Positions 310-7,748 of a stretch of 25,435 nucleotides of DNA are shown piece by piece. How positions within the stretch are numbered: the first letter of the stretch is position 1; every line of letters begins with the position of its first letter. A program made the position numbers and the translations under genes. Source of the stretch: a virus (lineage: Duplodnaviria; Caudoviricetes); IMG/VR virus record IMGVR_UViG_3300020043_002809, positions 1 to 25,435 of that record; one strand, given 5' to 3'. Below the pieces are notes generated by a model. It worked only from the letters and a program-made list of their open reading frames with translations, was not told the origin of the DNA and did no database searches.

Positions 310-574
310 GGGTAAGATGGGTAAGATGTGGGTAAGATAAAAACAAGCTATCTTACCCAACCTCAGCCCCAATAAATACAAGGCCTCGAATGCTATTGGG
401 TAAGATGGGTAAGATACTTTTATAAAATATGCAGGATAAAATAAATTTATATATACACACACAATATTTTTTTATATTACATTAACTCTCCAAGGAATTT
501 AGTTACCTATCTTACCTATCTTACCCAGCATGGTGCTAACTTGTTGAATATCAATACTCACTTTTGGGTAAGAT
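310..574. repeat. Iteron cluster (GGGTAAGAT), probable replication origin
   Basis: Exact forward copies at 310, 319, 330, 398, 407 and 566; exact inverted copies at 350 and 518; variant at 509. AT-rich core at about 416-485. Directly downstream of the primase-helicase. Confidence 0.8.
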
Positions 575-2675
575 AAATTGCTGCAACCATGTAACCGTAG
601 GAATTATTCCGCTTTATTCGCTCAAAATTGTGTTTTCTTAGCATTTGGCCAAGGCGTTTAATGCTTAATTTTTGGTTACTATTCTCCTCTAAATAGTCCT
701 TAATCATGGTTGTTGGCATCCATTGCCTAGTCCTTATGTTGGTATCGTTGGCATTAAAATGCTGCAATAACAACTCTTCTTCGATGCTTATTTCTAAAAA
801 ATCCTCGCTGACTTGCTCCATCAAATTAACAAAATCGCCCTCCAAATCGGAGGTTTCTCCGCTGTTAACCAATGCAACGCACTGGGCAAATAGTTGCTCC
901 TTATCGATACTATTATACAGCTTATAATCAAACTGCCCGACAACCTCAAACACGATAAAACGGCGGTTCCCTGTTGGATCATTTAACACGTCTAATTCGT
1001 TGCACGTACCGCACAGCGTCGCAATACGTTTAAGCGTCACGTTATTACGTCCGTATGGCTCACGCAGCGTAAACGATGGAGCTGATAATATCCGTTTCAT
1101 GTGCTTAGCGTCCTGCTTGGATTTCCCTGAAAATTCGTCATCAAATATCAGTAACGATTGACACATTAAAATTTCGTCATCTTTGCCACGGTCTAACTGC
1201 GACATTGCAAAATATCTGTTTAACTGCTCCGGTAATAACCGCGTGAAAAACGTTGATTTACCCGTGTTTTGTTTCCCTGCTAATACCAGGCACAAAATAT
1301 TTGGTTTGCCTTTTAGTATGCTTTCCACTATTCCAATAAGCCACGCACGCAGGCCAAATTCGCGATATTCCGGCGTGCCTGTGTTGCTGTTTATTGATTC
1401 AGCAAGTTTGGCAATATGGTCTACTCCATCCCATTTAAGGCCCTCAAAATACGATTTTATAGGGTTATAACTTGGCGTATAATTTGAAAAAATAACGCTC
1501 TCCACTATATCCCTAGAAACTTTAGGAAATTGCTTTTTTGCGTCTATGTAGATCGTGTTTATGTCGGATTGCTCCAGCTGCTTGCCTTGCATTTCGTAAA
1601 ACCGCGTAACCTCATTTTTTTTGATGGGAAAACGCTCACGCAGCCATATTTCAAAGGCCTCAATATCAAACTGCCCACGGTGCTGCTGTTCAGGCTTAGC
1701 AAATTCCTCGGCTACTATTTCAGGAATTAAGTCGGGGTTTTCTGAAATTACTTGTTTTTCGGTCATTCCAGCGCTGCGAAGCTTGCGCGCTGTTTGTCTG
1801 GTTTTGGTTTCTAGCTCGTCGGTTATACTAATACCATTTCTTAAACATTCAAAATAAAAACTGGCAATACACGCCTTATTGTTTGAATCTTTGCCGTAAA
1901 AACTTTTATATTTTTCTTCCGTTTCAACCGAATTATAATCAGGATAAAATTGGCTTAAATACTGATAATAATCTAACCCTGCCTCACCATATTCTGAATA
2001 AATAGCATACCCCAATTTAATCCAAACATTGTATTCTTTTGTAATATCAAAATTTATACTATATAAAATCCTTTCAAATTTATTTTGATAATGATCAGAT
2101 TTTTTAAATGTGGTAATAAATTTTACTTCTTCTTTAGTTGGTTTTGGTAAATATTTCTTAAATATTTCTGATTTTTCATTTAAAAACAAATCAGGATCGT
2201 ATGACAAATAGCGCGGACGGCTTACGTCCTTGCAAGCTCTGTCTAATTGTAATTTATAATTTAACCAATAGTATTGCTCTAATCCCTCAAAAGCCTCTGC
2301 ATGTTTTTTACCATCAATTTTTACAATCACACAAATACCAGTTCCTGAAATTGACCTAAAAACAGCAAAACTATAAACGTCGTTAATAAGCAGATTGAAC
2401 GCGTCGCCAATGTCCTCCACATGGTCAAAATCAATCGCAATCAATCCGCTGTGTTTAATTATTGCGTCATTTTTACGCTGTGTAAATGTTCCGCTAACTG
2501 TTATATAGGGGGCTTTTGCTTTTGCCTCTTTTCTGTCTTTATCAGTTTTCGCATTTCGAACTGGATAAACATAATCCTCGTAAATCCCGTTTTTTATGTT
2601 TTCTAAAATACTTACGATATCGGCAACTTCTTTGCTATCGGTATTTTTAATTGTTGGATAAAAGGAAACTTTCAT
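558..2675 (-). CDS. Primase-helicase: BT4734/VirE-N-like primase domain, PriCT-2-like domain, VapE/VirE-type ATPase
   Basis: N-terminal HSGLIAIDFD...RSISGTG...DRACKDVSRPRYLSYDP; PriCT-like WIKLGYAI; Walker A GKQNTGKS; Walker B IFDDE; DPTGNRRF. Confidence 0.88.
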   Translation of the reverse strand: MKVSFYPTIKNTDSKEVADIVSILENIKNGIYEDYVYPVRNAKTDKDRKEAKAKAPYITVSGTFTQRKNDAIIKHSGLIAIDFDHVEDIGDAFNLLINDVYSFAVFRSISGTGICVIVKIDGKKHAEAFEGLEQYYWLNYKLQLDRACKDVSRPRYLSYDPDLFLNEKSEIFKKYLPKPTKEEVKFITTFKKSDHYQNKFERILYSINFDITKEYNVWIKLGYAIYSEYGEAGLDYYQYLSQFYPDYNSVETEEKYKSFYGKDSNNKACIASFYFECLRNGISITDELETKTRQTARKLRSAGMTEKQVISENPDLIPEIVAEEFAKPEQQHRGQFDIEAFEIWLRERFPIKKNEVTRFYEMQGKQLEQSDINTIYIDAKKQFPKVSRDIVESVIFSNYTPSYNPIKSYFEGLKWDGVDHIAKLAESINSNTGTPEYREFGLRAWLIGIVESILKGKPNILCLVLAGKQNTGKSTFFTRLLPEQLNRYFAMSQLDRGKDDEILMCQSLLIFDDEFSGKSKQDAKHMKRILSAPSFTLREPYGRNNVTLKRIATLCGTCNELDVLNDPTGNRRFIVFEVVGQFDYKLYNSIDKEQLFAQCVALVNSGETSDLEGDFVNLMEQVSEDFLEISIEEELLLQHFNANDTNIRTRQWMPTTMIKDYLEENSNQKLSIKRLGQMLRKHNFERIKRNNSYGYMVAAIYLTQK

Positions 2676-2974
2676 GAATTTAGCTCCTTATCCAAACTTT
2701 TTTGTCGTGTCCTTGTTAAAAATTCAGGATCTTCATTAAAAGCTTTTTTCGCCCAAATTTTAATTAATTGACTGTCATCAGAATTTTGCAATAAATAAAT
2801 TGTTAGCAATTGACATTCAAAATTTCTTATAAATGCCACACTTTGTAAACGGCAATTATATTTAATCCATTTTAATTTTCTAATAAGCTCGTAATCGCTT
2901 AATTCAAATGCTACATAATAGCAGGCGGTTCTACATTCCGTAAAATCAGCCTCTTTGTCGATGTATTTTATCAT
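2672..2974 (-). CDS. Hypothetical protein, translationally coupled to the primase
   Basis: 100-aa ORF with an ATGA overlap into the primase start. Confidence 0.6.
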   Translation of the reverse strand: MIKYIDKEADFTECRTACYYVAFELSDYELIRKLKWIKYNCRLQSVAFIRNFECQLLTIYLLQNSDDSQLIKIWAKKAFNEDPEFLTRTRQKSLDKELNS

Positions 2975-3070
2975 AAATAAAAAACCCCATCAAATAGCCG
3001 CAGTGCAAGTACGTCTATTTAATAGGGCAAAAATCTTTTAACTATAAGGATCTTGCACATCCTAGTTAAC
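2975..3070 (-). ncRNA. Structured 5' leader: two hairpins with complementary loops, the second being an intrinsic terminator
   Basis: Hairpin 1 (3069-3038) has loop GUGCAAG; hairpin 2 (3028-2984) has loop CUUGCAC and is followed by UUUUUAUUU-AUG. G-U pairs work only on the minus strand. Confidence 0.75.
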
Positions 3071-3074
3071 GACA

Positions 3075-3106
3075 CAAATATAGGAAAAATTATTCCCCCC
3101 TCCAAG
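3075..3106 (-). promoter_or_regulatory. Bacteroidota promoter for the primase operon
   Basis: CTTG (3106-3103), 20-nt spacer, TATATTTG (3082-3075); predicted start near 3070 at the base of hairpin 1. Confidence 0.7.
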
Positions 3107-3509
3107 CCTTCAAAACAGCCTCATACTTAGCTAACTGCTTGCCGTAGTATTTCGGCATATTCTGCCACATCTCAAATACATGCTTATGGTGGATTACCGT
3201 GCTATGGTCGCGCCCCAGGTATTGCCCAATTTTAAAATAGGTATATTCCAAATCATTGCGTCCAATATTCGAGAAAACGACGCGCGCTTCCACTATGTTG
3301 CTGCGCTTAGATTTGCCCCTAATTTCGTTTTGTTTTAAGCCATACATGGTACTGACGTGGTTGTACAAACGATCTAAATCGCCGCCAAGTTGGTTGTTTT
3401 TCAAAAACTCTTGATAAAAAATCGCCTGGTCCCACGTCTTGAAACTTGCGAGCCACTCGCCCTTAACTGTTATATCAATACGGCCGTCGTTTTCTGCAAG
3501 TACTATCAT
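3090..3509 (-). CDS. DnaA C-terminal (domain IV)-like HTH DNA-binding protein
   Basis: EIRGKSKRSNIVEAR...YFKIGQYLGRDHSTVIH resembles the DnaA domain IV signature (GGRDHTTV). Confidence 0.75.
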   Translation of the reverse strand: MIVLAENDGRIDITVKGEWLASFKTWDQAIFYQEFLKNNQLGGDLDRLYNHVSTMYGLKQNEIRGKSKRSNIVEARVVFSNIGRNDLEYTYFKIGQYLGRDHSTVIHHKHVFEMWQNMPKYYGKQLAKYEAVLKAWRGE

Positions 3510-6043: not shown

Positions 6044-7390
6044 TTATTTACGATTATATAACTGCCAACGGTGGTATGCCCACCCGGGTTTATACCCACG
6101 GCGAAACGCTATCGCTTTCAATTCTTCCAGCGACTTAGCGCCCCAAACTTCAACTTTCGCCTCACGTTTTACGCGCTCTACATCCTCCACCGGCACCAAT
6201 TGCCCTGCAACTTTTTTAAGCTGCCTTGGTTTTAACGGCGCAGGCGCTCCGCATTCAGGGCAAACAGCCGCTTGGTGTACAGCGTAGCACAGTTTGCATT
6301 GCCTAACCGCCTCCGCTGTTTTCTGCCTTGCCTGTTTATCGCGTCCCTCCAACGTCCACTCGCGTGCCGCTGTCGGCATACCATGGCGAAATACATTTCC
6401 CGCGTGATCTAATATAACGGCGTGCTGTTTACCATCCATCGGCCGCAACGCTCTGCCCACTTGCTGCAAATACAGCGCTTCCGATTTTGTCGGCCGCAAT
6501 AATATCGCCGCTGCCACTGCAGGAATGTCGGTGCCTTCGCTTACTATGTCGCAGCTTGTTAGTACCTGGATGCTTCCATCGGTTAGGCCATTTATTAAAC
6601 GCTTCCGCTCGCTGTCGTCCATGCTTCCGTCCACGGCCGCGCTGCGATAACCGGCATCGGTGAACGCTTGAGCCGTTGCCTGAGCGTGCTGCACAGATAC
6701 GCAGAAAACTATTGCAGGCAATCCGTCGGCATGCTGTTGGTATTCGCGCACCGCGTCCCCTGTTATTCTCGACTTCATTAACGCGGTTTCTAAGTCCGCG
6801 CGGTTGTAATCGCCACCCACTGAGCGCACGCCTGTAAGGTCGGCCACGCTTGCAGCATATATTTTCGGCTCGCACAGAAATCCGTCCGTAATAAGTTGAC
6901 GCATTTTAACGCCTTCTAACAGCACATCGAACGCGTCGCCTAATCCTTTGCCATCCATGCGGCACGGCGTGGCTGTAACGCCAAGCAAATAAGCCTGCGG
7001 TTGTTTCTCAATTATTCCTGCCCAACTGCCAGCAACGGCGTGATGCGCTTCGTCGCAGATAATTAGATCGTATGTTTTAAGCTCGCGCCGCGCTGCCGTC
7101 TGCACCATCGCCACAGATACGGGCCACTCGTTTAAGGTGGGCTTGCCTGCCTCGATAGTTTCCCAAGGTACGCCCCATTGTGATAGCTTGGCCGTTGTCT
7201 GCCTCAGCAATTCCTGTCTATGCACAAGAATTAAAACCGATTTACCCTTCCGCACCGCTTCCCTAGTTATGTGGCAAAATATAACCGTCTTGCCTCCACC
7301 TGTAGGCAACTGATATAATACCCTTCTGTGGGATTTAAACGCCGCGCGTATGTCGTCAACGGCTTGGGCTTGGTATGGGCGTAAATTCAT
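6044..7390 (-). CDS. SF2 DEAH helicase (RadD/YejH/UvsW-like) with C-terminal Zn finger
   Basis: LRPYQ, PTGGGKT, DEAHH, TATP, QQVGRALR, CKLC...CPEC. Confidence 0.93.
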   Translation of the reverse strand: MNLRPYQAQAVDDIRAAFKSHRRVLYQLPTGGGKTVIFCHITREAVRKGKSVLILVHRQELLRQTTAKLSQWGVPWETIEAGKPTLNEWPVSVAMVQTAARRELKTYDLIICDEAHHAVAGSWAGIIEKQPQAYLLGVTATPCRMDGKGLGDAFDVLLEGVKMRQLITDGFLCEPKIYAASVADLTGVRSVGGDYNRADLETALMKSRITGDAVREYQQHADGLPAIVFCVSVQHAQATAQAFTDAGYRSAAVDGSMDDSERKRLINGLTDGSIQVLTSCDIVSEGTDIPAVAAAILLRPTKSEALYLQQVGRALRPMDGKQHAVILDHAGNVFRHGMPTAAREWTLEGRDKQARQKTAEAVRQCKLCYAVHQAAVCPECGAPAPLKPRQLKKVAGQLVPVEDVERVKREAKVEVWGAKSLEELKAIAFRRGYKPGWAYHRWQLYNRK

Positions 7391-7554
7391 AACCTCTCAA
7401 TAGCTTGCTGCAACCTTTGATAAATTTTGATTGACTTAGGCGCTTCCTTTTCCCAGCGCGCTATCACGCTTCTATGTATGCCCAATTCGTCGCAAATGCT
7501 GCTCAATGTTCGTCCTTTTTTTGCTGCTTTATTTTTTAATTCTTGTAAAAACAT
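7387..7554 (-). CDS. 55-aa Cro/XRE-like HTH regulator absent from the ORF track
   Basis: MFLQELKNKAAKKGRTLSSICDELGIHRSVIARWEKEAPKSIKIYQRLQQAIERL; ATGA overlap with the helicase start. Confidence 0.8.
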   Translation of the reverse strand: MFLQELKNKAAKKGRTLSSICDELGIHRSVIARWEKEAPKSIKIYQRLQQAIERL

Positions 7555-7555
7555 A

Positions 7556-7589
7556 TTGCAAAGATAGTATTTTGTTCTATATTTGCAAC
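7556..7589. promoter_or_regulatory. Overlapping divergent promoters
   Basis: Plus: TTG 7556-7558, 19-nt spacer, TATATTTG 7578-7585. Minus: TTG 7588-7586, 19-nt spacer, TATCTTTG 7566-7559. Confidence 0.75.
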
Positions 7590-7597
7590 AATAAAAT

Positions 7598-7739
7598 AGT
7601 CAGGTGGCGGAATGGTAGACGCTAACCCACAAGTGTAGATATGTACTTTGTTAGTTTGATGTAATAACCTTCAGTTCCCGATTATGGTTTTCATTCAAGT
7701 AATAATCATATCATACAGGTTCGAATCCTGTCCTGACTA
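7598..7739 (+). ncRNA. tRNA-like RNA (Leu-type D arm, canonical T arm) with a 92-nt non-canonical central region
   Basis: Acceptor AGTCAGG/CCTGACT, 7 of 7 paired; TG then GCGGAATGGTAGACGC D arm; ACAGG-TTCGAAT-CCTGT T arm; discriminator A; no encoded CCA; no canonical anticodon arm. Confidence 0.85.
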
Positions 7740-7748
7740 CAAAACATT

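Follow-up and report, generated by a model that had tools for sequence, protein, structure and literature searches.

What is the function of a short RNA with two mutually complementary hairpin loops that a phage encodes directly ahead of its replication genes? The locus lies in a virus record of 25,435 bases, estimated to be 93% complete, which was analysed as a whole and is called the window in the following. The window holds a single copy of the element: a two-hairpin leader RNA of ~90 nt on the minus strand, immediately in front of the replication genes. An earlier note on this DNA had listed its parts, i.e. two hairpins with exactly complementary 7-nt loops, four G-U pairs, an A.G mismatch, a U-tract and an AUG, and had read them as an attenuator in cis or a small RNA acting in trans. 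All of these parts were recovered in the sequence and by folding (Table 1), where the four G-U pairs of hairpin 2 were counted by hand.

The leader and its operon

The leader belongs to a leftward operon with the order Cro-like HTH gene, helicase, VRR-NUC, small ORFs, DnaA-C HTH gene, leader element, 100-aa ORF and 705-aa primase-helicase. The 100-aa ORF and the start of the primase-helicase overlap by 4 nt, which bears out the coupling of the two genes claimed earlier. For the 100-aa ORF no Pfam or PHROG family was matched. It has 5 homologues at 65-99% identity, and its Atlas matches scored below 0.9 and are hypothetical proteins. Among named relatives, the primase is closest to those of Cellulophaga, Nonlabens and Flavobacterium phages (31-35% identity). 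Together with the TAnnTTTG promoter type these relatives suggest that the host is a member of the Bacteroidota.

Table 1. Features of the leader element and the adjacent genes. Positions refer to the window unless loci are given.
Feature	Position	Strand	Basis or remark
TTGG (-33-like)	3105-3102	-	19 nt upstream of the box
Bacteroidota-type -7 promoter box, TATATTTG	3082-3075	-	sequence
Hairpin 1 (6 bp, 3-nt bulge, 5 bp)	3069-3038	-	sequence and folding
Loop 1, GUGCAAG	3058-3052	-	pairs with loop 2
A/U-rich single-stranded linker, 9 nt	3037-3029	-	sequence and folding
Hairpin 2, long and terminator-like (14 bp, A.G mismatch, 4 bp)	3028-2984	-	folding
Loop 2, CUUGCAC	3009-3003	-	exact reverse complement of loop 1
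U-tract, followed by ATG at 2974	2983-2975	-	sequence
Upstream gene with DnaA C-terminal HTH	3090..3509	-	stop 7 nt ahead of the promoter box
100-aa ORF, first gene 3' of the leader	2672..2974	-	ORF list; ATG at 2974
Primase-helicase (BT4734-like N, PriCT-2, VapE-like), 705 aa	558..2675	-	ORF list and domain scans
Third loop-1 copy, directly before the start codon, 3' of hairpin 2	L503, L505, L509, L512, L513, L515, L522, L523, L539, L556, L558

The box in front of hairpin 1 fits TAnnTTTG, which we take to be the -7 promoter consensus of the Bacteroidota. By itself this motif occurs in the window about as often as expected (30 vs 30.3), and a sigma-70 scanner listed no promoter at the box. We therefore base the promoter call on the placement of the box, which is fixed in the homologues: it lies 8-20 nt ahead of loop 1 in 87 of 87 elements, the box being demanded by the detector.

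On the minus strand the element folds with -31.0 kcal/mol (z -4.6), and none of 200 shuffled sequences was as stable. For the plus strand the values were -14.8 kcal/mol and z -1.3, and 21 of 200 shuffles reached its stability. Folding with DNA parameters gave much weaker structures (-14.1 and -7.9 kcal/mol). A terminator scanner did not list hairpin 2; its stated rule admits loops of 3-8 only, and the stem of hairpin 2 is interrupted near the loop. The 7-mer of the loop has two matches in the window, both inside the element, at ~4 expected by chance. A single match between two 7-nt loops is thus little proof by itself, and the case made here rests on homologues. A chance complementarity beside an ordinary leaky terminator has this expectation in its favour. 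The related idea of a hairpin acting at the DNA level, such as an origin signal, is opposed by the strand asymmetry and by the weaker fold with DNA parameters.

Several other features were seen in the window. Repeated ATCTTACCCA-like boxes in both orientations were noted by eye at 330-540 (minus strand), 3' of the primase-helicase stop and before a TATATTTG box at 295-288; they are possibly origin iterons. The region 7387-7585 contains divergent TAnnTTTG boxes (7559-7566 on the minus strand, 7578-7585 on the plus strand) and a 55-aa Cro-like HTH gene. Neither a repressor nor an integrase was found among the 16 window ORFs scanned. After the TATATTTG at 7578-7585 and just 5' of an early gene, a tRNA-like RNA (7600-7741, plus strand) shows an acceptor stem, a D-arm and a T-arm, while a ~95-nt insert replaces the anticodon arm. 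It was matched neither by ARAGORN nor by Rfam, has a fold z of -1.5 and carries no copy of the leader loop. G002, G005 and G031 share its scaffold with differing inserts.

Leaders upstream of related primases

Homologous loci were collected through the primase. The 78 loci considered exclude 11 in which the gene was cut or started <50 nt from the contig edge, as well as L137, a duplicate of L006. A promoter with a terminator candidate at most 1,200 nt upstream was present at 23 of the 78, and 20 of these 23 (some of them near-duplicates) had a loop complement of at least 6 nt. Loop complementarity persists in many related phages although the letters differ. Near-identical elements occur at L003 and L004, with an A-U pair of hairpin 2 replaced by G-C in a compensatory swap. 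At 63% primase identity, the loops of L006 read GUAGGAU/AUCCUAC, with the element directly ahead of the primase; at 45% (L008) they read UCCGAAC/GUUCGGA.

The remaining 55 loci had no such candidate. Moreover, L001 and L002, whose primase is 99% identical to that of the window, have no TAnnTTTG box in ~1.8 kb upstream and carry a methyltransferase-like gene coupled to the primase. Judged from these sequence comparisons, the promoter-leader unit is an exchangeable cassette, because it is missing there and had no candidate at the 55 loci. The description as a primase-operon leader fits the window element; the family is, however, not tied to VirE/VapE.

What lies between the primase and the DnaA-C HTH gene (window 2676-3089) differs among the window and the close relatives L001, L002, L005 and L006: promoter, leader and 100-aa ORF, a methyltransferase-like gene, a GNAT-like gene, or a small ORF with a leader. 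The methyltransferase-like and GNAT-like labels were read from the translation by eye. What look like branched terminator variants missed by the rule were seen by eye ~450-510 nt upstream of the primase in L136 and L140, where the loop-1 complement sits in an internal or side loop. Eleven loci (L170, L175, L177, L185, L189, L192, L195, L196, L199, L204 and L208) have, upstream of the primase, a subtype with a short terminator (10-11 bp) that is immediately preceded by an extra hairpin; its loop spacing is within the family range, L196 excepted. A chimeric leader occurs at L254:1504-1604 (plus strand), where hairpin 2 resembles that of L053/L245 and hairpin 1 is of another type, such that the kiss is broken.

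Loop-blind searches and covariation

We ran patterns defined by the promoter box and the base of hairpin 2 alone on viral contigs, GTDB and metagenomes. Among the 81 distinct viral matches listed in which hairpin 2 folds, 58 had a complement of at least 7 nt linking the apex of the hairpin to the 5' part, and 65 one of at least 6 nt. When partners were swapped, 2.4% of 6,480 pairs reached at least 7 nt. A second, narrower pattern gave 39 of 43 at the lower and 26 of 43 at the higher threshold. A covariance model built without the pseudoknot found 24 distinct matches in 100 loci, training sequences included: 23 had a kiss of at least 7 nt, and one, a chimera, did not. For GTDB, 120 of ~840 matches were inspected. 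Three of the 58 folding ones reached at least 7 nt, which is chance level, such that this small sample contained no chromosomal member; it says nothing on absence from prophages.

Alignment A3 comprises 17 members of the window's subtype that were picked because the kiss is present. In it all 119 of 119 cells of the kiss are Watson-Crick; six of the seven pairs covary and one is invariant. The stems of hairpin 1 are 92-94% paired, with compensatory changes at 5 of 10 pairs, while hairpin 2 is 96.6% paired with such changes at 10 of 19 pairs (n=17 throughout).

Over the family, 104 distinct elements yielded 71 loop strings. Loop 1 is enclosed by at least 4 base pairs in 99 of them, and the last 12 nt ahead of hairpin 2 are ~80% A+U. 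At least 6 T within an 8-nt window 3' of the stem were present in 55 of 65 elements. For the loop spacing 93 candidates were listed; L023 and L274 were dropped (91 left), and then L138, L390, L416 and L441, which are spurious A/T-rich matches, so that 87 were kept. The distance from loop 1 to loop 2 was 38-49 nt in 85 of these 87, across differing architectures though partly bounded by the search patterns. Elements of other architecture that were collected through the primase show this spacing too. The free energy of the kiss is distributed more narrowly than for random strings of the same composition (sd 2.5 vs 3.5; 0 of 200, kinship ignored).

The covariation supports a real RNA structure under selection, and together with the gene context it substantiates the earlier suggestion that selection acts on an RNA placed before replication genes. 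The 2.4% of swapped pairs that reach 7 nt count in favour of a chance match. At the level of the family chance is refuted by the loop-blind test and by covariation over dozens of loop strings, and we regard chance or a DNA-level signal as having next to no probability. The kissing-loop terminator leaders thus form a real and widespread family in Bacteroidota phages.

Downstream genes and carriers

The family heads many unrelated genes and is not bound to a VirE/VapE primase. Most of these genes encode replication initiators, primases, helicases or HNH nucleases. Among the 83 first downstream ORFs scanned we found DUF6291 (14), HTH_36 (14), primase (12, a count selected by the query), helicase (5), NUMOD4/HNH (5) and other domains (5), and 28 had none; the window, L233, L189 and L195 were left out of this set. 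According to PHROG, five downstream ORFs are an initiator, DnaD-like, O-like or a replisome organiser. Nearly always the element ends 5-34 nt ahead of the start codon of a replication or nuclease gene.

Cultured carriers are the Flavobacterium phages mumin6-4, tooticki6-1, lillamy9-7, hattifnatt9-1 and hemulen9-1, Cellulophaga phage phi19:3 and Olleya phage Harreka_1. In the parts searched of Cellulophaga phages phi46:1 and phiSM and Nonlabens phage P12024S no element was detected. The genomes of mumin6-4 and tooticki6-1 contain two elements each, one before an HNH gene and one before the replication module. The elements L454:12195 (mumin6-4) and L456:12625 (tooticki6-1) have a common leader scaffold with two compensated loop changes, which go along with a swap of the replication module (helicase and VirE primase vs DUF6291 and primase). 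In lillamy9-7 an Rfam DUF805b motif (L457:815-849, plus strand) occupies the slot where relatives keep the HNH cassette and a kissing leader.

A scan covering tyrosine integrases (PF00589) scored in 2 records out of 39 and, among the 16 near-complete genomes, in a single one; 15 of these 16 carry a detected element. In the cited parts of their description, no lysogeny genes were found in the mumin phages, and the Muminvirus carriers are presented as lytic only (PMC7077304). Prophage immunity of the P4 CI or P1 C4 kind, to which the earlier note had likened the element, is not supported by these carriers and seems unlikely.

Comparison with known RNAs

Rfam 15 left the element of the window unmatched, giving two chance matches elsewhere at E 2.8-3.8. 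Twenty homologous loci gave no match at E<=1, and 20 further loci at the gathering score gave one DUF805b match, away from the element. In line with the earlier statement that no named family was recognised, a literature search, whose scope excluded most subscription papers, found no description of the family. The kissing-loop terminator leader is thus apparently undescribed. Fremin et al. (2023) list unnamed structured-RNA candidates at most 25 bp upstream of HTH_36, VirE_N, NUMOD4 and DUF4373 genes, i.e. the same gene classes; the word 'kissing' is absent from the main text, where 'pseudoknot' occurs only for gp32 and in a reference (PMC10690425). That catalogue, compared by gene class, may include parts of the leader family without the kiss. 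By its description, an unnamed Bacteroidetes candidate RNA lies near D5 and integrase domains (PMC8040213).

The closest known RNA is the guanidine-IV riboswitch (GGAM-1/mepA) with its Gd4v variant. As far as the cited accounts go, it is likewise a 5' leader of ~95-105 nt with two hairpins, a loop-loop pseudoknot and a 3' terminator hairpin with U-tract (PMC7736828, PMC11611296, PMC9788692); termination is predicted for our leader. In these accounts the kiss includes the terminator loop, gives read-through, and disappears with a longer terminator stem and a shorter linker. The kiss and the surrounding nucleotides of guanidine-IV are described there as highly conserved and as binding guanidine, whereas the letters of the leader kiss vary freely. 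Its genes are given as sugE, transporters or GNAT on bacterial chromosomes, whereas those of the leader are phage replication and nuclease genes: none of the 83 downstream ORFs was a sugE, a transporter or a GNAT. Membership in guanidine-IV failed on this gene context and on the conserved pocket, given the single invariant kiss pair and the many loop strings. A guanidine-IV-like antiterminator geometry would operate here without a ligand.

One may ask whether the leader is instead an orphan riboswitch, or an antiterminator site for a phage or host protein, related to guanidine-IV and with the kiss stabilised by its partner. Topology and size agree with this. In addition, 84 of 104 elements have a GU close to the 5' end of one of the kiss strands, the next of eight other dinucleotides tested reaching 58, and the cited part of one study states that the second loop of guanidine-IV needs a G and a U (PMC7736828), a putative correspondence. 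On the other hand, even in a single subtype just one of the seven kiss pairs is invariant, the downstream genes are not transporters or metabolic enzymes, and identical loops ahead of unrelated genes argue against autoregulation by the downstream protein. We consider such a bound partner very doubtful.

Phage P4 provides the second comparison. Its CI RNA with seqA/seqC is also a replication-operon leader, with a central sequence complementary to upstream and start-codon sites as in a three-copy subfamily described below; it is described in the cited text as processed and acting in trans in lysogens (PMC4825925). The window has no downstream copy, and most carriers have no tyrosine integrase. 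The likeness to P4 CI and P1 C4 that the earlier note had seen applies to that subfamily and does not extend to the window element. The C4 RNA of P1/P7 is grouped with P4 CI as a comparison system.

Plasmid antisense copy control (attenuation in pT181/pIP501, RNAI/RNAII of ColE1) works through an antisense RNA of its own, transcribed from the opposite strand. Here as there, complementary and sequence-variable loops pair ahead of replication functions, in our case over 7 nt, but the leader has both loops in one transcript. Antisense promoters are not enriched: an antisense TAnnTTTG box lies near 4 of 87 elements vs 9 of 65 control windows, in a test limited to this promoter type.

Proposed attenuation in cis

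The reading we prefer, with somewhat better than even confidence, is a transcription attenuator in cis in which the kiss hinders closure of the predicted terminator and thereby permits read-through into the replication genes. Hairpin 1 would fold first. The 7-bp kiss would form when loop 2 and the upper part of hairpin 2 emerge from the polymerase, and it would stretch the short linker, such that the lower 14 bp of hairpin 2 would fail to zip in time. If the kiss came late, the full hairpin 2 would close and the ~90-nt RNA would be released. The full hairpin, ending 9 nt ahead of the AUG, would also hinder translation initiation. The loop letters would be free provided that pairing is kept and the helix strength stays within a narrow range, and a tuned read-through fraction could set the dose of dose-sensitive genes (initiators, primase-helicase, nucleases). 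Likewise, taking the kiss as the ON state of the switch is our interpretation.

A contact in cis predicts a confined loop distance, as found in nearly all elements. The constant loop spacing and the narrow distribution of the kiss energy together argue for a tuned contact. Attenuation in cis, which the earlier note had offered, is also the best reading here, if held with little more than even confidence; its closest mechanistic counterpart would be the kissing-loop antiterminator of guanidine-IV, which that note did not name. Dispensability stands against the cis model: L001/L002 have no leader, 55 of 78 primase loci had no candidate, and the L254 copy has a broken kiss. Nor did a trigger emerge, since antisense promoters are not enriched, a classical antiterminator is not family-wide and a third loop copy is not general. 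Moreover, the guanidine-IV kiss needs its ligand, whereas no pocket is apparent in the leader.

A classical antiterminator, in which an upstream segment pairs with the 5' arm of the terminator, was not supported. Family-wide only 4 of 87 elements beat their shuffles at p<=0.05. In the window's subtype the pairing was 83% complete with no compensatory change, and the window alone forms it in partial folds.

The kiss could also belong to the finished RNA, where it would compact or stabilise the ~90-nt product or speed terminator folding; the product would be a small RNA or a protein decoy, and the downstream genes would receive leak-through only. Hairpin 2 is indeed far longer than termination needs and has an invariant base. 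Tandem U.U/G.A/A.G-like motifs in 28 of 104 stems and the A/U-rich linkers are both typical of tertiary folds, and the bulge in hairpin 1 of the window's subtype could bend this hairpin. The end of the element so close to the start codons fits a role in cis, however, and in guanidine-IV the completed stem suppresses the kiss, according to the cited portion of the study (PMC11611296). We judge a role confined to the finished product to be quite improbable.

A third loop copy and possible action in trans

In a subfamily the sequence of loop 1 recurs at the start codon (Table 1): among 39 family members, 9 have at least 7 nt of it, vs 0.9% in the null, and 11 of 39 at least 6 nt, with three loop codes. 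The subfamily consists of two or three lineages enriched by the search pattern used. In it loop 2 would have two exclusive partners, and pairing with loop 1 would hold it away from the initiation region; since the initiation region would then be free, the kiss would again be the ON state. The third copy is not general, being absent from the window element, and extra loop copies are not enriched genome-wide. G016, G008 and G017 seemed to have an excess of copies, but these were dispersed and shared no context.

This arrangement bears on RNA feedback or exclusion, a possibility that builds on attenuation in cis rather than replacing it. Either the terminated RNA or a hairpin 2 released by cleavage in the A/U linker would accumulate and pair in trans with a nascent loop 1 or with the start-codon copy. 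This pairing would block the kiss in cis and shut the operon once the number of genome copies, or of co-infecting kin, goes up; the loop would be an address code as in P4 CI. The three-site layout in the 11 elements, with its three codes, points this way, as do the 71 loop strings. Despite the need for a partner change, loops diverge as fast as unpaired columns (0.45 vs 0.36 for unpaired columns and 0.33 for the upper stem, at 20-30% scaffold divergence). Scaffolds that are 91-96% alike differ at 2-4 loop positions (L271/L217, L026/L068), and all six genomes with two elements have differing loops.

On the other side, the window has no third copy, and the copies found come from few, pattern-enriched lineages. 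Identical loops on unlike scaffolds (GUUGCAG, GUUGCGG, GUCGCAG) fit a preferred helix better than a private code. Below 10% scaffold divergence the loops were unchanged in 5 of 5 pairs, differing loops within one genome are the chance expectation given so many strings, and most carriers lack a tyrosine integrase. We therefore think feedback in trans unlikely. In its widest form, which we put forward as a tentative and equally unlikely proposal, the terminated leader of lytic Bacteroidota phages throughout the phylum would be its own sequence-addressed inhibitor: the kiss in cis would be ON, the accumulated product in trans OFF, and the 7-nt loop would define protein-free groups of copy control or exclusion. 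If true, such a self-addressed leader would have the guanidine-IV fold, but with RNA rather than a ligand as its driver.

Significance

The leader adds a widespread, uncatalogued regulatory RNA to the replication modules of Bacteroidota phages, which it heads, in a group whose gene control has been little studied. Its presence in cultured Flavobacterium, Cellulophaga and Olleya phages makes it directly testable, and dozens of natural variants are at hand to probe the proposed steric kissing-loop antitermination without a ligand. The orthogonal 7-nt loops could become tunable attenuators for Bacteroidota genetics.
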